Positions 2,618 through 34,076 of a stretch of DNA of 64,000 bases are shown here, piece by piece (within the stretch, counting starts at the first letter, position 1; each line of letters starts with the position of its first letter). The notes beneath the pieces are model-generated. The model was given only the letters and a program-made list of their open reading frames with translations, was not told the DNA's origin and ran no database searches. A program made the translations under genes and the position numbers. The DNA comes from a virus. Location: positions 82,945 through 146,944 of the IMG/VR virus record IMGVR_UViG_3300036790_000396; one strand, 5' to 3'.

Positions 2618-3114
2618 GACTGCTCCTTGGATGCATCGAAGTCCGCGAGCGCCAGGACGGCCTCGCGGTGCTGCTCCGCGGCGGCTTCCAGCATCCGCCG
2701 GGATTCCTCCACGCGCTCCTGCAGCTGGCGTTTCCGCCCGAGGGTGATGACTTCCGGGTGAGCCGCCTGGTATGCCTCCGCGACCGGGGTGAGGACGGAG
2801 GCAAGTGCCGTCACTTCCTTGTGCGTGAGGGAGGTTCCGGTGGCTGCCCGGTTCATCGCGCCGTAGAAGTGAGGCGACAGGGCCAGGTCCCCGCCGCACG
2901 GCTCCAGGAAGAGGATCCCGCTCAGCCGGGCGCCGCGCCCGCCGGTGAGGATGCCCTTCTCCGGCTGTGACCTGTCGGCGAGACTCTGCACGCCGATGCT
3001 GCCGCCGGTGTTCCAGCGGAAGACTGCAGTGCCGTGGCCGGGCACGTCGAGGAGGACTTCGGGGCCGTTGACGCTCATGGCCCACGGCCGGCTGGTGTTC
3101 TCGGTGTCGCTCAT
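2614..3114 (-). CDS. hypothetical protein, leaderless
   Basis: ATG 6 nt after TTTATTGA-TATTAT. Confidence 0.65.
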   Translation of the reverse strand: MSDTENTSRPWAMSVNGPEVLLDVPGHGTAVFRWNTGGSIGVQSLADRSQPEKGILTGGRGARLSGILFLEPCGGDLALSPHFYGAMNRAATGTSLTHKEVTALASVLTPVAEAYQAAHPEVITLGRKRQLQERVEESRRMLEAAAEQHREAVLALADFDASKEQS

Positions 3115-3189
3115 GCCACGATAATATCAATAAACCTTAGTAAAAAGCAAGAGGACCGGCGGATCCGCATACGCCGGTCCCCTTGCCGC

Positions 3190-3918
3190 TCATATCCGGG
3201 CAGAATCGGAGAGGTACCTCCGGTACTCCTCGTCGCATGCCGCGGAGCACACCGTGCCGTTTCCCCACTCTTCCGTGAGCTGGTACCGATCGCCGCAGTT
3301 GGCGCACCTGGACCAGTTCTCCCCGCGGTCGCGGATCCCGATGCTGATCTCCGCGATCTGCCTGTGGATCTCCGGTGCCTGCGGGTCCGCCAGGATCGCC
3401 TCGGGATCGTACGGCGCGCCCTGATCCCGCGATGCGGGGACGTACTCCGGGGGCTGCGACGGCAGCCCCAGGCGCTGGCGCAGCCGCATCCTCAGCGCCT
3501 CCAGCGAGACCGGCCTGCTGACGGTGACCCCCTCGCCGTGCGGCATCCGCCGGGCCTCCGCCGTGGCCTTCTCGTCTGCTTGCCACCCCGGGAGTCCCGG
3601 CATCTCCCCCGGCATCTCCGGCAGCCCGACGGTCTCCGTCCCGCGCGCCTGCTTCCCCGGATCGGGAGCGTCGCCGTCCGGCATCTCCCGGTCGAAGCAC
3701 TCCCCGTGCATCCCGGTCAGGATGATCTCCCGCTCCTCGTCGCTTGCTGCCGGGAATGCCTCGTGCAGCCGGAGGGTGCGGTAGGCGTAGTAGCCGTCCC
3801 ACGCCGCCCGCGACAGGCCGCTGACGACGGCCTCCCGGCCGCAGGACGGGCAGACGTAGGTCACGGTCACTTCCGTCCCGCCGCCGGCGACGGTGACGTC
3901 CTTCGGGAGCGCGCTCAT
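3190..3918 (-). CDS. Zn-finger-containing hypothetical protein
   Basis: CPSC...HGEC and CANC...CSAAC motifs; start MSALPKD overlaps the upstream stop. Confidence 0.6.
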   Translation of the reverse strand: MSALPKDVTVAGGGTEVTVTYVCPSCGREAVVSGLSRAAWDGYYAYRTLRLHEAFPAASDEEREIILTGMHGECFDREMPDGDAPDPGKQARGTETVGLPEMPGEMPGLPGWQADEKATAEARRMPHGEGVTVSRPVSLEALRMRLRQRLGLPSQPPEYVPASRDQGAPYDPEAILADPQAPEIHRQIAEISIGIRDRGENWSRCANCGDRYQLTEEWGNGTVCSAACDEEYRRYLSDSARI

Positions 3919-27489: not shown

Positions 27490-27515
27490 CCGCGGGGATC
27501 ACCGGGGGAGCGGTC

Positions 27516-27785
27516 GTGTTCCTGGCCGGGATCCTCATCGGGCGCTACGGCCCGTGGCGCAGGAGCCCGCAGCCGCAGGAGAACGGCCCCTCCTGCGGCT
27601 GCGGCCACCACCTGTCGTTCCACGAGAACGGCACCGGCCGCTGCCGTTTCGAGAAGCGCGGCAGGGCGGCCAGCTACGACAGGGGCAGCCGCCCTGTCGG
27701 GTGGGATACGGAACGCTGCGGCTGCCAGCATTACAGCGGCCCGGAGCCGTATCCCGAGTACTACGCTCGGGACATCTCGTCCTGA
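27516..27785 (+). CDS. small Cys/His-rich membrane-anchored protein
   Basis: CGCGHHLSFH...C...CGCQHY. Confidence 0.55.
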   Translation: MFLAGILIGRYGPWRRSPQPQENGPSCGCGHHLSFHENGTGRCRFEKRGRAASYDRGSRPVGWDTERCGCQHYSGPEPYPEYYARDISS

Positions 27786-27877
27786 GGGGGTGAGGCCGCT
27801 GTATCCCGTAGGTGACACGGCGCCCCTGTTAGCCGGCCTCCGTCCCTCGGAAGAACAGAGGGACGGAGGCCGTTTTC

Positions 27878-28795
27878 ATGTCGCTGACCAAGTACGCCAG
27901 CCTGGAGCTGCTGGAGGCGTGGCGCGTGCCCGCGAAGGCGACGCCGCGCGGGCTGTCCAAGGCGGCGCACCGCGTCGACTTCGAGTACACGCCGCGGCCC
28001 GGCTACCTCGCGTACTGTTGCCATGTGAGAGACAGCAACAAGGGAAAAAGCTGCACGGGGCCCGGGTGCCTTCGGGAAGCAAAATGCAAGGGTCTTTGCC
28101 TTGCTCATTACACTCAGCGGAGATCTGGAAAAGATCTTTCCGTGATCCGCGTTCGTGCAAAAAATGCTACGGACTCCTGCGTATTTCCCGGATGCGATCG
28201 TCCCCATTTTGCTAAAGAATACTGCAAATCCCACTATCATCAGCGGCAGCGTCACGGAGAAGTAACAGTATTTCGTCAGTTCTTGGAAATTTGTTCTTTT
28301 CCTGGATGCGATCGTGGTCACTCTGCGCATGGATACTGCGACGGGCATGCGATTCAGCTGCGGAAGGGAAAGGAGCTGTCTCCCCTCCGGGCTCGCCAGA
28401 AGGGCCGTGTATGCACAGTAGACGGCTGCAGCGATCCTTACCTTGCCCGCGGCTTCTGCGCAGTTCATTATAACCAGTGGCACTGGGCTGAATCGGAAGA
28501 GGGACGCGAGGCTCGAAAACGTGCTTTCCACAAGCGACGTGCTATTAAGGCATCTGCCGAGACAAGACTGATCTCTTCTCGCGAATGGAAGCGCCTGGTC
28601 AATCGTTACCAGGGGAAATGTGCTTATTGCAGGAAGGCCCCGTGGAATCATCGTGAGCACATAATTCCCCTAAGCCGCGGTGGAAGGGAATCGATCGGGA
28701 ACCTGCTTCCGTGCTGCGAGAGATGCAACACGTCTAAGCACAATAAGCTTCTCTCTGAGTGGAGGTACGGTGCTTCGCAAGTACGCATCGCTTGA
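27878..28795 (+). CDS. HNH homing endonuclease fused to the original 5' end of the protease gene
   Basis: Four CxxxGC...G.C..HY repeats; CAYC...EHIIPLSRGG...NLLPCCERCNTSK; the first ~44 aa duplicate the protease N-terminus. Confidence 0.9.
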   Translation: MSLTKYASLELLEAWRVPAKATPRGLSKAAHRVDFEYTPRPGYLAYCCHVRDSNKGKSCTGPGCLREAKCKGLCLAHYTQRRSGKDLSVIRVRAKNATDSCVFPGCDRPHFAKEYCKSHYHQRQRHGEVTVFRQFLEICSFPGCDRGHSAHGYCDGHAIQLRKGKELSPLRARQKGRVCTVDGCSDPYLARGFCAVHYNQWHWAESEEGREARKRAFHKRRAIKASAETRLISSREWKRLVNRYQGKCAYCRKAPWNHREHIIPLSRGGRESIGNLLPCCERCNTSKHNKLLSEWRYGASQVRIA

Positions 28796-31700
28796 GGTAC
28801 TGGAGGCGTGGCGTCAGACATCTTCTGCTGCTATGTCGAAAACTGCTCATAGAGTAGATTTTTCGTACATTCCACGTAAAGGATACTTGTACGTCCGCTC
28901 CCGGGCTATCTCCTCGCGCACCAACGACAACCACGACACGTTCGAGGCCCCGGAGATCGAGCAGGGCTACCGGACTTTCCTCGGAAAGCCCGCCTTCGTG
29001 AATCACCGTAACAGCAACCACCGCCGTGCCCGCGGCGTCATCGTGGCCGTGGCGCTGCACCGGGACCGCAACCCTGACGGCTCCCCCGACACCTGGGTCG
29101 AGGCACTGCACGAGCTGGACGCGGTGCGGTTCCCCAAGCTGGCGAAGGCGATCATCGAGGGCCGCGTCAACCGCACCTCGATGGGCGTCGACTGCGAGTA
29201 CTCCACCTGCTCCGCGTGCGGCAACCGGGCCACCAACCCTGCTGAGTACTGTGCTCATCTTCCGGCTCGCAAGGGGCTGAAGATCAGGCAGCGTAACAAT
29301 GAGACGGGGAAACTGGAAGAGAAGCTTATTCATGAAATATGTGCTGGTCTTACATTTTTCGAGAACAGTTTTCTCGTAGAGGATCCTGCCGACCCAACTG
29401 CCCATGTTTTGGACAAGCCGGACGACAGGGGCATGAAAATAAATGCCTCACGTCACGTGCTTCCAGGTGCGCCCCATGCGGATGCAGTTGACCGAGGAAA
29501 CGGAAACGCCGTACCGGCGCGCTATGTCAGCGAGCGTGAGCGCCCCGGAACCCCGGTTCATCCAGTCCTTGCCCGTCGCGACCTGAGGCAGCAGTTCACG
29601 CTTGATGATCCGGACATCCTCTTCGGTCAGCCTGCGGTTGGGATGAGTCGCCCCGCGAGCGTGCCGTTCTTTGGACACCATGTCAGCGACGTTGTCGGCC
29701 CGCGTGCCGAGGAACCAGTGCATCGGGTTCATGCACGGCGGCCAGTCACAGCGGTGGAGTACCCCCAGGCGCGCAGGGATCGGGCCGCGAATCAGCGCCC
29801 ATCCGTATCTCGATCCCAGGACACTTCTGCGGTCCGTGCCCGACAGCGTGAACCGCGGGTAGCCGGTCCTGAAGAATCCTCCCGTCCACGGATTGCAGAA
29901 TCCCGGTCCGGGCGTGAAGTCGATTTTCGACAGGAAGCGCTCGATCTCGGACTCAGTGCTCGCGAAGCGTCCGTCTACCAGCGATCGTTCCATGGACGTG
30001 ATTCTATCAATAATCCTAGGCAGGCCCGCTACCTCACCATGGATGAGGCCCGCGCTGCGGGCCGCGAGGCCATCCGGCGGCAGGCGGAGGATCCCCGCTT
30101 CGACGGCGTCGGCCTGAAGCAGGACGATGACGGCTGGTACGTGCGCACGCACCGGGCGCGCAGCCGTTCCCATCCCGTCCCGGAGGCGATCCCCGCGAAG
30201 GACATCGAGTTCATCCGCTCTACCGGGTCCCGCCGCACCGCCCGCAACGAGGAGGGCGGCGAGATGCCGGTAGTCCCCTCCAGCCGCCTCCCCCGGGTGA
30301 GCCTCCCCGAGTCCCGGAGCAGCTATGAACAGGCCGGCGACTTCCTGGATAACCTGCTGGGCAACGTGGGAAATCCGGACGCGGCTGAGTGGAGGCCGTC
30401 CTATCCCACCCGCGGCTGGGACGACGAGCGCCAGCCCAGGCTGCACGAGGAGCTGCGCAAGTCGCGCGAGCGCAACCTCCGGCGCGACATTGACGATGAC
30501 AGCGGCGAGGGCCTGGCCAGCAAGCTCGACCGCCCGGAGCAGTGGGAGCACCAGATCGAGCACGGCCTCCCGGAAAGCCTGTTCGGTGCCGGCGTGCACG
30601 TCACGCACGATTTCAGGGACGATCCCGAGGGCTTCCTCCGCGACCGGTGGAACATGCGCGCCTTCCCGTACCGCGACCCGGGCGGCACCGGCCCCGGAGG
30701 CCTGAAGCCGTCGAACAAGTGGGTCCGCAAGACCTGGCAGCGGGCAGTCGGCCCGCTGGCCTGCGACCACCCCGGCTGCCCGCCCTGGGAGCACCGGGGG
30801 CCGCGCCCTCAGGCATCGCTGCGTACCGCTGACCGGGACGATGATTACTTCTACGACGAGGACGACGATCAGCACCCGGATGAGCTGCCGAGCCGCCGGG
30901 ACTGGCGCCGGGAGGATGACGTGACCCGCAGCGAGTCCTACCCCTATTCGCCCTCTCCCGGCTCGGAGGGGCGCGACGACCTGGCGGGCTCCCGCACCCG
31001 CGGGCGCCGCGCCGCCGAGTCGTGGGACGGCTTCCCCGACGTGCGCCCCGCTCCGCCGTCCGGCCCGCGCCTGTCCAGCCGTGTCGCGGCTGCCGGGGAC
31101 AGCTGGGAGCCTGATCAGTGCCCGGAGTGCGGCGAGGGCTGGACCGAGGGCAGCTCGCGTTTCGATGACTCAGACTCGCAGTGCCTGAACTGCGGTACCC
31201 GTTACAATGCTTTTTCCGGGGCTCCGCTCAGCGATGACGAGATTGCCGTTAATGATGCTGCGATGGCCAACGAGCAGCAGAAGCGCGAGGACACGCGCTC
31301 CGGGCAGGAACTGTGGAGGAAAGTCCACCCGGGCCCCGGGCACGAGTACTCCTATAACCCGGCCGGCGACAATGCCCCGCTGGAGATGATGAATGACCTG
31401 CAGGACCAGGAGAACCAGGACAAGAGCGGACCGCTGCGGCTGAACCCGAGGCTTCCCTCCTACGAGAAGATGATGCGCCGCCGGCGCGAGCGCGCCATCC
31501 AGCAGTGGCCGTCCCATCAGGAGGTCCCCGTCGCCCCTCCGGGGACGGAGAGGCTGTCCAGCCGCATGGCGAAAGGGCGCCATGACTACCGGATGATGCA
31601 CCAGGCTCCCGACCGGCACAGCGGCGTTCCCTATCACGAGGCGAGCGGCGCGGACCCGGATGACCTGGTCACGATCTACCGGGGAGTGCCCCGGAACGTG

Positions 31701-34076
31701 AAGACGATTCACCGCGGCGACTGGGTGACCACCGATCCGGCCTACGCCCACCAGCACGGGCGCCACAACTCCGACCCATCGAAAGACTGGCCGGTGCTGC
31801 AGGCGGACGTTCCTGCGCGGCACCTGTACTGGGACGAGAACGACGAGAACGAGATCGGCTACCAGGGGCCGCACCTGGGCCAGCGTGACGTGAGCTACCA
31901 CGAGGAAGACCCGGATGATGTCCCGGGCGCTGCCGATCCTGATGCGTGGCGCGGGCATTTCGCCTCCGTGCGCCGCCGCGCGGACATCTCCGACGACGAG
32001 ATCCGCCGCGGCCTGAACCTCCCCGGCTCCCGCGAGGAGGAGCACCAGGAGGACGTGCGCGACAAGGTGAACGGCCTCTTCGGCCCGCTGCACGAGGACT
32101 ACGGCGGCCAGGAGAACTACAACCTCGCCCGGCAGAACGACACGATGACGGACCTGCAGCGCCGCTTCGAGGGCGGCCGGGGCAGGTTCGCCTTCGACGA
32201 GGAGGGGGACCCCTACTACGAGGCCCGGCACCCGTCCGGCTGGAGGGCCCGTGTCTACACCGACCAGAGCGGCGAGGCCCAGGTCCACCACGACGCGACC
32301 GGCGACGAGGCCCACGACGTGATGGACATCGGCGAGTGGGGGCCGCAGGGTCACCGCCTGTCAGAGACCTACGGCCCCGCCGATCTTGACCGTGATCTCG
32401 CCGCGTGGCACGGCGATGACGGCGAGGAGGGGTACCGGGCGCACCTGGAGCAGGAGGACCCGCGCATCCGCCGGCGGAAGCGCCGTCATCAGGGCGCGCG
32501 CCGTACCGCCGCCGACCAGCCGCCGCGGATGCCCCCGCCCGTCGACACGCTGCGCCCCGACAAGTGCCCCGTCTGCGGGGACAGCGACGTGTTCAAGGGC
32601 CAGCGCTGCTCCGTGTGCGGGTTCGTCGCGCCGCCGGACATCTTCCGCGATCCCGACACCCAGCAGGCCGCGCAGAACCACCAGATGCTCGAAGAGGGCA
32701 AGGTCCCCCTCGGCATGCCGGAGGGGCCCGCCGACGAGGAGCAGGTCGGCTCCGGCCAGGACGCTGACGACCAGCTGCTGCACCCTGACCAGATCGCCCC
32801 CGACGGCGTCCCCGGCGTGCAGCCCGGCAGCAGCCAGCCCGAGAACGGCCCCCTCGGCGGCGGCCAGGACGAGGGCCTCGTCGATCCCTCCCGCGTGAGC
32901 GCCCAGGGCGACGTCCCCGAGGAGGACGAGGAGCAGGCGGCGCAGCAGGAGACGGACGAGGGAGAGCAGCAGGCGGCGGAAGGACAGGCCGAGGAGGAAG
33001 AGGGAGCGGCCCGCGCCGACGAGGCGCAGGCAGCCGCAGCGGGGGAGCAGGAGGCCGAGGACGCTGACGCGGATGCCTCGCCCCGGAAGGATCAGGACGA
33101 CGACCGCCCCGGAGGGAAACGCAGGATGGCTAAGCAGCAGCAGCGGCGGCAGGCACCGCCCCGGTCTCGCCAGGAGCCGCGGACTGCCGCGACTGCGGTG
33201 CTGGCCGCCCAGCAGGACACCATCCGCCGGCAGGCGGCCCAGATCCGCTCTCTCGCCGCGCAGATGAGCTTCCTCGCGGACCTCGCCGGGGTCCGGCCGC
33301 AGATGGAGCAGATCCGCCGGCAGGCCGACATGATGAACCCGGCCTCCCCCGTCCCGGACCCGCCGGAGCGGCCCCCGTACGAGACCACCGAGCAGGCGCT
33401 CCAGCCGGAGACGATGGGCGACGCGAGCCGCCCGGGCACCGAGCCCGGGTCGACGTCGCACGTGCCTGCCGCGATGACCACCACTTCCGTCACGCCGGGC
33501 GTCGAGATCCAGACGGCGCCGGCCTCCTACCTCGATGACGTCACCGCTCCCGTCCAGGGCACCAACCCGTCGGAAGACGGCGGCGTGCCGGTTGAGCAGC
33601 GGCGCATCGAGACCGATGTCCGGATTGACCCTGACCCGCTGAAGGCCCAGGGTCCGGGCATCGGGGGACTGGGCAGCGACGGCACCGCCTACCCGTGGGT
33701 GATCGCCGCCCGCGGCGGCATGCCGCGCACCGCCTCGCAGGCGGCGGCCTCGCAGGAGGATGAGCACGGGGCGCGCACGTTCGCCTCGATCCGCCTTGCC
33801 CGCGCCCGCGTCACCGCGGGGCTCGCCCGCGGCGACGAGCTGGAGGGCGCGGCCCTCATCGAGAAGGACGCGTCGCTGTCCCTGAGGGACATCGAGCGGG
33901 AGATCGGCACGCTGGAGAAGGTCGCCGCCGCGGCCCCGCCGCAGCGTCCCCGCGCCTCGCAGCGCACCGCCGCCCGGTCGGCGCCGTCGATGTCCGCGCC
34001 GCCGCAGCTGGCCCGCACGGCGAGCTACTCCGACCCGGGCGACCCGATGGACGCCTCGGACGTGTTCCTCGACTGA
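28770..34076 (+). CDS. prohead (capsid maturation) protease polyprotein with C-terminal scaffold
   Basis: GGAGG then GTG 28770; FLGKPAFVNH (His), RTSMG (Ser), CSACGN..CAHL, FFENSFLVEDPADP; lies upstream of the capsid genes. Confidence 0.8.
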   Translation: MLRKYASLEVLEAWRQTSSAAMSKTAHRVDFSYIPRKGYLYVRSRAISSRTNDNHDTFEAPEIEQGYRTFLGKPAFVNHRNSNHRRARGVIVAVALHRDRNPDGSPDTWVEALHELDAVRFPKLAKAIIEGRVNRTSMGVDCEYSTCSACGNRATNPAEYCAHLPARKGLKIRQRNNETGKLEEKLIHEICAGLTFFENSFLVEDPADPTAHVLDKPDDRGMKINASRHVLPGAPHADAVDRGNGNAVPARYVSERERPGTPVHPVLARRDLRQQFTLDDPDILFGQPAVGMSRPASVPFFGHHVSDVVGPRAEEPVHRVHARRPVTAVEYPQARRDRAANQRPSVSRSQDTSAVRARQREPRVAGPEESSRPRIAESRSGREVDFRQEALDLGLSAREASVYQRSFHGRDSINNPRQARYLTMDEARAAGREAIRRQAEDPRFDGVGLKQDDDGWYVRTHRARSRSHPVPEAIPAKDIEFIRSTGSRRTARNEEGGEMPVVPSSRLPRVSLPESRSSYEQAGDFLDNLLGNVGNPDAAEWRPSYPTRGWDDERQPRLHEELRKSRERNLRRDIDDDSGEGLASKLDRPEQWEHQIEHGLPESLFGAGVHVTHDFRDDPEGFLRDRWNMRAFPYRDPGGTGPGGLKPSNKWVRKTWQRAVGPLACDHPGCPPWEHRGPRPQASLRTADRDDDYFYDEDDDQHPDELPSRRDWRREDDVTRSESYPYSPSPGSEGRDDLAGSRTRGRRAAESWDGFPDVRPAPPSGPRLSSRVAAAGDSWEPDQCPECGEGWTEGSSRFDDSDSQCLNCGTRYNAFSGAPLSDDEIAVNDAAMANEQQKREDTRSGQELWRKVHPGPGHEYSYNPAGDNAPLEMMNDLQDQENQDKSGPLRLNPRLPSYEKMMRRRRERAIQQWPSHQEVPVAPPGTERLSSRMAKGRHDYRMMHQAPDRHSGVPYHEASGADPDDLVTIYRGVPRNVKTIHRGDWVTTDPAYAHQHGRHNSDPSKDWPVLQADVPARHLYWDENDENEIGYQGPHLGQRDVSYHEEDPDDVPGAADPDAWRGHFASVRRRADISDDEIRRGLNLPGSREEEHQEDVRDKVNGLFGPLHEDYGGQENYNLARQNDTMTDLQRRFEGGRGRFAFDEEGDPYYEARHPSGWRARVYTDQSGEAQVHHDATGDEAHDVMDIGEWGPQGHRLSETYGPADLDRDLAAWHGDDGEEGYRAHLEQEDPRIRRRKRRHQGARRTAADQPPRMPPPVDTLRPDKCPVCGDSDVFKGQRCSVCGFVAPPDIFRDPDTQQAAQNHQMLEEGKVPLGMPEGPADEEQVGSGQDADDQLLHPDQIAPDGVPGVQPGSSQPENGPLGGGQDEGLVDPSRVSAQGDVPEEDEEQAAQQETDEGEQQAAEGQAEEEEGAARADEAQAAAAGEQEAEDADADASPRKDQDDDRPGGKRRMAKQQQRRQAPPRSRQEPRTAATAVLAAQQDTIRRQAAQIRSLAAQMSFLADLAGVRPQMEQIRRQADMMNPASPVPDPPERPPYETTEQALQPETMGDASRPGTEPGSTSHVPAAMTTTSVTPGVEIQTAPASYLDDVTAPVQGTNPSEDGGVPVEQRRIETDVRIDPDPLKAQGPGIGGLGSDGTAYPWVIAARGGMPRTASQAAASQEDEHGARTFASIRLARARVTAGLARGDELEGAALIEKDASLSLRDIEREIGTLEKVAAAAPPQRPRASQRTAARSAPSMSAPPQLARTASYSDPGDPMDASDVFLD
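29448..29993 (-). CDS. HNH endonuclease with C-terminal HTH, nested antisense in the protease gene
   Basis: ERFLSKI...CNPWTG...GYPRF...VLHRCDWPPCMNPMHWFLGTRADNVADM...LADIARRYGVS; own ATTATTGA-TAGAAT promoter 7 nt upstream. Confidence 0.9.
   Translation of the reverse strand: MERSLVDGRFASTESEIERFLSKIDFTPGPGFCNPWTGGFFRTGYPRFTLSGTDRRSVLGSRYGWALIRGPIPARLGVLHRCDWPPCMNPMHWFLGTRADNVADMVSKERHARGATHPNRRLTEEDVRIIKRELLPQVATGKDWMNRGSGALTLADIARRYGVSVSSVNCIRMGRTWKHVT
33126..34076 (+). CDS. probable internally initiated scaffolding protein
   Basis: In-frame ATG preceded by GGAGG and by the CCCCGGAAG motif at 33081. Confidence 0.5.
   Translation: MAKQQQRRQAPPRSRQEPRTAATAVLAAQQDTIRRQAAQIRSLAAQMSFLADLAGVRPQMEQIRRQADMMNPASPVPDPPERPPYETTEQALQPETMGDASRPGTEPGSTSHVPAAMTTTSVTPGVEIQTAPASYLDDVTAPVQGTNPSEDGGVPVEQRRIETDVRIDPDPLKAQGPGIGGLGSDGTAYPWVIAARGGMPRTASQAAASQEDEHGARTFASIRLARARVTAGLARGDELEGAALIEKDASLSLRDIEREIGTLEKVAAAAPPQRPRASQRTAARSAPSMSAPPQLARTASYSDPGDPMDASDVFLD

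Follow-up and report, generated by a model that had tools for sequence, protein, structure and literature searches.

How can a selfish nuclease gene persist inside a phage head-assembly gene that carries no sign of RNA or protein splicing? The question is raised by a stretch of 64,000 nt (hereafter the window; positions 82,945 to 146,944 of IMG/VR virus record IMGVR_UViG_3300036790_000396), from the complete 146,944-bp genome of a soil phage, with terminal repeats and 68% GC. There, an HNH endonuclease gene lies antisense within a long gene encoding a head-protease polyprotein, right after the protease domain, and the host frame runs across it without a stop codon. To our knowledge, homing endonuclease genes are thought to survive in essential genes only by means of introns or inteins, and otherwise to sit between genes. 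We favor splicing-free read-through as the most likely answer, with a probability of about 0.7. Under this reading, a free-standing HNH homing endonuclease gene would lie antisense and codon-aligned in an unspliced host gene, within the linker that immediately follows the protease domain, and would have a −10 element of its own from which a leaderless mRNA is made. Ribosomes would read through its reverse complement, placing ∼187 unconstrained and probably disordered residues between protease and downstream cargo. Selection on the phage would purge the HNH codons TTA, CTA, and TCA, which read as stops on the host strand, and a stretch of AT-recoded protease codons would travel with the element.

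The antisense gene after the protease domain is complete, as an earlier note on this DNA had stated. Its open reading frame (ORF; Table 1) encodes 181 amino acids, beginning with MERSLVDGRF and ending with KHVT, followed by a TGA stop, and the protein matches HNH endonuclease families in PHROG (E = 1e-17 to 1e-12). The Pfam family HNH_3 matches all four aligned HNH members, but under its gathering score (best E = 7e-5); helix-turn-helix matches at residues 145–171 are likewise weak and subthreshold, and sequence searches of the Protein Data Bank with profiles of the HNH protein and of the protease returned nothing significant. Across the six alleles described below, the motif CH.CD....CMN..HW.LGT...N..DM is invariant and the H/N/H-type residues are kept. 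HNH codons on the minus strand are in exact register with host codons on the plus strand, and the third HNH codon position is the most variable (0.30–0.58 differences per site, against 0.15–0.35 at the first and 0.11–0.30 at the second). The ratio of nonsynonymous to synonymous substitution rates (dN/dS) across the six alleles is 0.28 in the HNH frame and 1.21 when the same DNA is read in the host frame. These values point to a functional HNH protein under purifying selection, and to a host-frame peptide constrained only to lack stops. The gene is probably a free-standing HNH homing endonuclease gene of the HNH_3/I-HmuI-like phage family and would be active in homing.

The arrangement recurs in other phages. 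Searches with the HNH protein found further bearing alleles in other metagenomes, and the set comprises six: the window, L011 (on a 165-kb contig), L012, L013, L020, and the near-identical group L021–L024. Their HNH proteins are 56–80% identical, and in all six the gene is antisense, at the same site, and in phase 0, with the host ORF continuous across it. The site lies 17–23 codons past the DPADP motif that closes the protease domain. The host ORFs of L011, L012, and L013 (1240–1416 amino acids) continue to the conserved C-terminal end, that of L020 is at least 1410 amino acids long, and every ORF with a complete 3′ end reaches the conserved C-terminal region. Insertion-free alleles, with which the earlier note had proposed an alignment, exist at four IMG/VR loci with proteases 73–78% identical: L006 (2043 amino acids), L007 (1392 amino acids), and L008 (1316 amino acids) are uninterrupted through the same site, passing from the protease to variable cargo modules to the conserved C-terminal region, and L009 has the same layout as L008. 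In the protease-domain tree, bearing and insert-free alleles form three sister pairs (L024/L006, L012/L007, and L013/L008; supports 85–99), which therefore imply repeated gain or repeated precise loss. This alternation of presence and absence between sisters is consistent with the homing strategy suggested in the earlier note.

That note had also held that the host frame is kept open. The frame is indeed free of stops throughout the insert, both in the window and in the five further, diverged alleles, and the arrangement thus passes the refuting test set in the note; the other two plus frames of the window insert contain three and seven stops. In the codon-aligned antisense frame, a host-strand stop requires the HNH codon TTA, CTA, or TCA, which together make up 0.44% of codons in this genome. 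None of the 87 HNH Ser codons is TCA and none of the 80 Leu codons is TTA or CTA; AGT and TCT do occur. In each HNH gene, 21–23 synonymous changes of one base would create a stop in the host frame; between HNH alleles, dS is 0.56–1.6. Resampling of synonymous codons gave a probability of an open frame, P(open), of 0.15–0.48 per allele, with a product over the six alleles of 8e-5 to 6e-3. Because the alleles share ancestry, we also counted distinct Ser (56) and Leu (37) codon states per alignment column; this phylogeny-conservative P was 0.043 with whole-genome codon usage and 0.003 with the usage of genes of similar GC content at third codon positions (GC3). As a control, eight of eight free-standing HNH homologues from high-GC phages (Bradissa, Yvonnetastic, BrutonGaster, EvePickles, SkinnyPete, Awesomesauce, Mx9, and RBC57, where SkinnyPete and Awesomesauce have identical length, GC3, and stop-complement codon counts and may be one lineage) have one to five stops in the same register, even at GC3 of 0.80–0.83. 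We conclude from these codon comparisons that the stop-free state is held by selection, beyond a filter at the time of insertion.

The alternative that survives best, although we consider it unlikely, is a chance shadow ORF: the frame would be open as a result of GC-rich codon usage, and the gene would be split, its downstream part having its own start or being dispensable. Of the 181-codon windows in the genes of this genome, 60% are stop-free in the codon-aligned antisense frame; since this frame is often open by chance, a single allele proves nothing. The per-allele values of P(open) agree with this, long shadow ORFs span most of the polyprotein gene, and the protease stands alone in distant relatives, so that a split gene is not necessarily lethal. 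However, all six alleles are open despite their synonymous divergence, whereas every free-standing homologue has stops, and the conservative estimate of P remains at 0.003–0.043. The spacer between DPADP and the HNH stop takes values of 17, 19, 21, 22, and 23 codons, yet phase 0 is always kept. Furthermore, no start codon is conserved after the insert, and the C-terminal region is in the protease frame in every allele. The high frequency of open antisense frames and the stand-alone proteases nevertheless weigh against the read-through reading, as do three further points: the six alleles are not fully independent, owing to shared ancestry; HNH identities broadly follow the protease tree, and the patchy distribution would be accounted for, with no homing at present, by one old insertion and repeated losses; and the reading, though the most likely, rests on sequences of uncultured phages.

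The protease codons next to the HNH gene are AT-recoded, an observation of the earlier note that extends to all bearing alleles. The GC content of the window stretch (about 29240–29450) is 0.44–0.62, with a drop to 0.44–0.50 at 29250–29450. Host-codon GC3 at this flank is 0.30–0.75 in the window, 0.25–0.30 in L011, and 0.40–0.55 in L020, compared with 0.85–1.0 in the insert-free L006, L007, and L008; a low-GC3 tract of 15 to ∼90 codons is present in six of six bearing alleles and in none of three insert-free ones. Amino acids are kept codon for codon while third positions change to A or T (e.g., GAG ATC TGC GCC to GAA ATA TGT GCT). Both co-conversion of flanking sequence and resistant targets are known for intronless homing of the free-standing endonucleases of T4. 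By analogy, the recoded flank may be either a donor co-conversion tract of variable length or a cleavage-resistant variant of the target.

These flanks and the allele distribution bear on a second alternative, in which the HNH protein has been domesticated and immobilized (e.g., as a packaging helper or regulator), its gene having become fixed in antisense orientation in the late operon and being passed on by vertical descent, with a loss from time to time. The broad congruence of the HNH and protease trees favors it, and purifying selection on the HNH protein is compatible with a host function, but three sister pairs differ in HNH presence and recoded flanks are typical of nuclease targets. 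Moreover, members of the family in other phages are free-standing HNH genes of the homing type, dispersed beside DNA-metabolism genes, and the HNH gene is not adjacent to the terminase gene. We regard domestication as quite improbable.

The anatomy of the insert speaks to the remaining alternatives. The HNH ORF takes up all but ∼15 nt of the insert, so that neither a ribozyme core nor intein blocks would fit, and both flanks are coding sequence that aligns with the uninterrupted alleles. R, A, V, P, S, and G abound in the host-frame peptide, and ∼20% of its residues are hydrophobic; Pfam has no family on it or on its flanks, a search for it among longer proteins returned only the ORF of the window itself, and a structure model of protease plus insert from a seven-sequence alignment was uninformative, with a model confidence (pLDDT) of 35. 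The earlier note had seen neither intron nor intein, and our scans agree: Rfam, which covers only described intron classes (a further point against read-through), contains no intron matching window positions 27500–30600 (E up to 10) or five related loci (E up to 1), and Pfam detects no Hint or intein domain anywhere in the host ORF. A self-splicing intron carrying an antisense endonuclease ORF, which would remove the insert at the RNA level, would not be out of place, given that phage HNH genes are often intron-borne, that group I introns occur in actinophage structural genes (the LittleE capsid gene, as cited in PMC11855218), and that a strong hairpin lies beside the HNH stop in the window. 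It is nonetheless very unlikely in view of the Rfam result and the coding flanks; furthermore, the hairpin is not conserved, and for an intron an open host frame would be unnecessary. An intein or intein remnant, with its junk removed by protein splicing, is hardly credible: antisense LAGLIDADG and VSR-like endonucleases have been reported in actinophage inteins (bioRxiv 10.1101/2025.01.02.630785), but in the present case Hint and intein families are absent from the insert and from the rest of the ORF, the insert is almost exactly the HNH ORF with no space for splicing blocks, and the host-frame peptide has the high dN/dS given above.

With splicing improbable, we return to the read-through reading and to how the HNH gene would be expressed. 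The motif TAnnnT occurs at exactly −13 to −8 of the HNH start in six of six alleles (TAGAAT in three, TAGTAT, TATGAT, and TACAGT in the others). The earlier note had proposed a leaderless promoter consisting of TAGAAT and a sequence ahead of it. The −10 part of this proposal stands, but ATTATTGA directly abuts TAGAAT and is therefore not a normally spaced −35 box. A strict sigma-70 scan found no full promoter at the HNH gene, and upstream of the HNH ATG the six alleles have no common sequence beyond TAnnnT; the 7-nt spacer is unrelated, and so is the region beyond about −15, because different cargo is encoded there. Genome-wide, TAnnnT-N6-7-ATG/GTG is not enriched ahead of coding-like ORFs (11 of 43, against a baseline of 19.6%; P = 0.21). 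Leaderless transcripts are common in actinobacteria. The conserved hexamer is consistent with a −10 element from which an HNH mRNA with little or no leader is transcribed, and leaderless actinobacterial transcripts have also been discussed elsewhere (PMC11855218). In the HNH region of L024 (∼3025–3534), the gene of the L021–L024 group seems to start 13 residues later (MASEIERF...), with TACAGT as its −10-like box; it may be N-terminally truncated or use another start.

Directly 3′ of the HNH stop, the window contains a hairpin pair on the minus strand (29385–29447; 80 nt, −33.6 kcal/mol, z = −4.3). It is located within the recoded protease codons and is not kept in the other five alleles (z = −1.5 to +1.0). 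In this phage only, it may serve as a 3′ end or stabilizer of the HNH mRNA. A terminator role for the recoded tract was considered and rejected: the strong hairpin is specific to the window, and a pattern scan gave no matching terminator.

The earlier note further proposed that host proteolysis removes the insert. That the prohead protease of the phage trims away the junk peptide, in place of an intein or intron, is possible but in our view doubtful. In T4 and in giant phages, proteases of the gp21 fold cleave the internal proteins of the head and clear them away (PMC10052503, PMC7411985), and later trimming of the junk peptide is therefore plausible. However, no motif conserved on both sides of the insert was found across the six alleles. 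KINAS and RQAR, previously taken for flanking linker-like motifs, are specific to the window, and RQAR does not represent a site duplication: a cargo module begins with RQARYLT, which is also found internally in L024. PDxRG[L/M] was rejected as a cleavage site, as only three of the six alleles have it both before and after the insert, and it is absent from other module borders. In these three (L011, 3950–4620; L012, 3950–4610; L013, 3950–4620), a recoded copy of the motif ends at the HNH stop (CTA or TCA when read along the host strand), and past the insert comes a GC-rich native copy; this second copy is missing in the window, L020, and L024. If the junk were excised, the second copy would leave both products with native-like ends in these three alleles.

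We turn now to the host gene. The plus frame is open from 28680 to 34076 as a single ORF, and homology and the GGAGG ahead make the GTG of Table 1 its probable start. The polyprotein runs from the protease domain through the insert and variable cargo modules to the conserved C-terminal region. The protease domain matches phrog_2774 (E = 2e-57) and phrog_18299, "head maturation protease" (E = 5e-23). An AlphaFold2 model of the domain, built from 39 homologues (pLDDT 86), aligns with T4 gp21 (5jbl; Z = 10.7, root-mean-square deviation 2.7, 128 residues) and with herpesvirus assemblins (Z = 7–9.6; 1vzv, Z = 9.6), and thus predicts a prohead protease of the T4 gp21/assemblin fold. Its last predicted β-strand comprises residues 212–218, ∼8 residues ahead of the insert. 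H79, S137, and H163 are invariant across the 39 homologues and are candidates for the catalytic Ser and His residues. Judging from gene position and fold, the host gene would be essential.

Table 1 Features of the head-protease polyprotein gene and its antisense insert (window coordinates)
Feature	Position	Strand	Basis
Putative HNH homing endonuclease gene, 181 amino acids	29448..29993	-	PHROG, weak Pfam, invariant motif, dN/dS
TAGAAT, a -10-like hexamer located 7 nt ahead of the HNH start codon (ATG)	30001..30006	-	TAnnnT kept in six alleles
AT-recoded, low-GC3 protease codons abutting the HNH 3′ end	29240..29447	+	GC and GC3 compared with insert-free alleles
Host-frame reading of the insert, ∼187 codons (junk peptide)	29448..30008	+	Stop-free in six alleles; dN/dS 1.21
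Host gene, head-protease polyprotein	28770..34076	+	ORF list; GGAGG-N4-GTG start; homologous long ORFs
Predicted prohead (capsid maturation) protease domain, 226 amino acids	28770..29447	+	PHROG matches; AlphaFold2 model
First cargo module, where the native polyprotein resumes (RQARYLTMDEAR...)	30021..30230	+	phrog_3666, E = 9e-7

Long fusions of a protease to a tail are also found in cultured relatives, namely gp17 of Rhodococcus phage Finch (989 amino acids) and gp93 of mycobacteriophage Cali (1286 amino acids), both located upstream of the major head protein. More distant metagenomic relatives have a stand-alone protease gene of ∼220 amino acids. In one such locus (L035, 6001–10301; 45–49% identity), the 220-aa protease gene is followed by genes of 249 and 438 aa, a Phage_cement_3 protein, and a probable capsid gene, and the fusion of the window's clade is therefore not universal. 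The C-terminal region of the polyprotein has no similarity to the 438-aa gene after the stand-alone protease of L035.

The stretch after the protease domain is the most variable in content among the alleles, with whole cargo modules coming and going, and this region evidently tolerates insertions. The phrog_3666 match covers residues 30–69 of the piece starting at 30021, and a similar module start is found at an internal position of the L024 polyprotein. Interchangeable modules form a mosaic in the middle of the polyprotein (window 30021–34076; L006, L008, L020, and L024) and vary from one close relative to another; among them are the phrog_3666 module, a region matching phrog_2579 ("ParB C-terminal domain"), and zinc-ribbon CPVCG repeats; common to all polyproteins are only the protease and the last ∼450 residues. 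At the other end of the protease gene, a second HNH gene (window 27878–28900, plus strand, 305 amino acids; Pfam HNH_5, E = 7.6e-11) forms an in-frame fusion with a high-GC copy of the ∼43 codons that begin the protease, and a low-GC replacement of the protease N-terminus follows it, with the GGAGG-N4-GTG at 28770. The same protease gene has therefore been invaded at both ends by different nucleases using different tricks.

A nuclease gene thus appears to persist in a head-assembly gene without any splicing. The HNH gene would be under a double constraint, on its own protein sequence and on the absence of stops on the opposite strand, in a processed and insertion-tolerant linker, and would provide a natural, testable case of two-strand coding kept by selection. 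For annotation, the locus is a warning that a long "hypothetical" stretch in a phage polyprotein may be a mobile gene read from its opposite strand. Should the prohead protease indeed excise the junk peptide, which we rate as doubtful, selfish nucleases might more generally find a niche that needs no splicing by nesting antisense, in codon register, within polyprotein genes that undergo processing anyway.

Parts of this system have counterparts elsewhere. The protease resembles T4 gp21, the prohead proteases of phiKZ and SPN3US, and herpesvirus assemblin in its predicted fold and its location in the head module, but unlike them it is joined to a conserved tail and to over 1,300 residues of variable cargo. 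For the nuclease, one comparison is with the seg and mob genes of T4 and with mobE, embedded in nrdA of phage Aeh1 (PMC2988022, PMC2790892). Like the present element, they are free-standing, have their own expression signals, lie beside variants of the host gene, and are patchily present among relatives. They sit, however, between genes or split the host gene into two parts that are translated separately, and are on the same strand, whereas here the host is one continuous ORF. Actinophage inteins with antisense LAGLIDADG or VSR-like endonucleases share the antisense position within an open host ORF (bioRxiv 10.1101/2025.01.02.630785; Gorbalenya 1998, as cited there). In those inteins, splicing blocks flank the endonuclease and the junk is removed at the protein level, whereas the HNH insert has neither a Hint domain nor room for one. 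The closest published case, the ShiLan domain, a hidden HNH in a DNA methylase of cluster F1 mycobacteriophages (Arsenault, Gosselin and Gogarten 2025, PMC11855218), is likewise an HNH insertion in a protein-coding actinophage gene with a stop-free host frame, no intron or intein features, and a disjunct distribution among close relatives, and read-through is the proposed outcome. The ShiLan HNH, however, is on the same strand, in the +3 frame, and without its own promoter, while the present gene is on the opposite strand, in codon register, and preceded by a conserved −10 box; the text of that paper does not contain the words "antisense," "reverse," "opposite strand," or "complement." The ShiLan host is a dispensable methylase; here it is a head-protease polyprotein, and stop avoidance is backed by controls. 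The combination of antisense layout and freedom from splicing was not found in the literature searched. The element described here appears to join the antisense layout of the intein endonucleases to the splicing-free state of ShiLan, together with a predicted promoter of its own, in a head-assembly gene.

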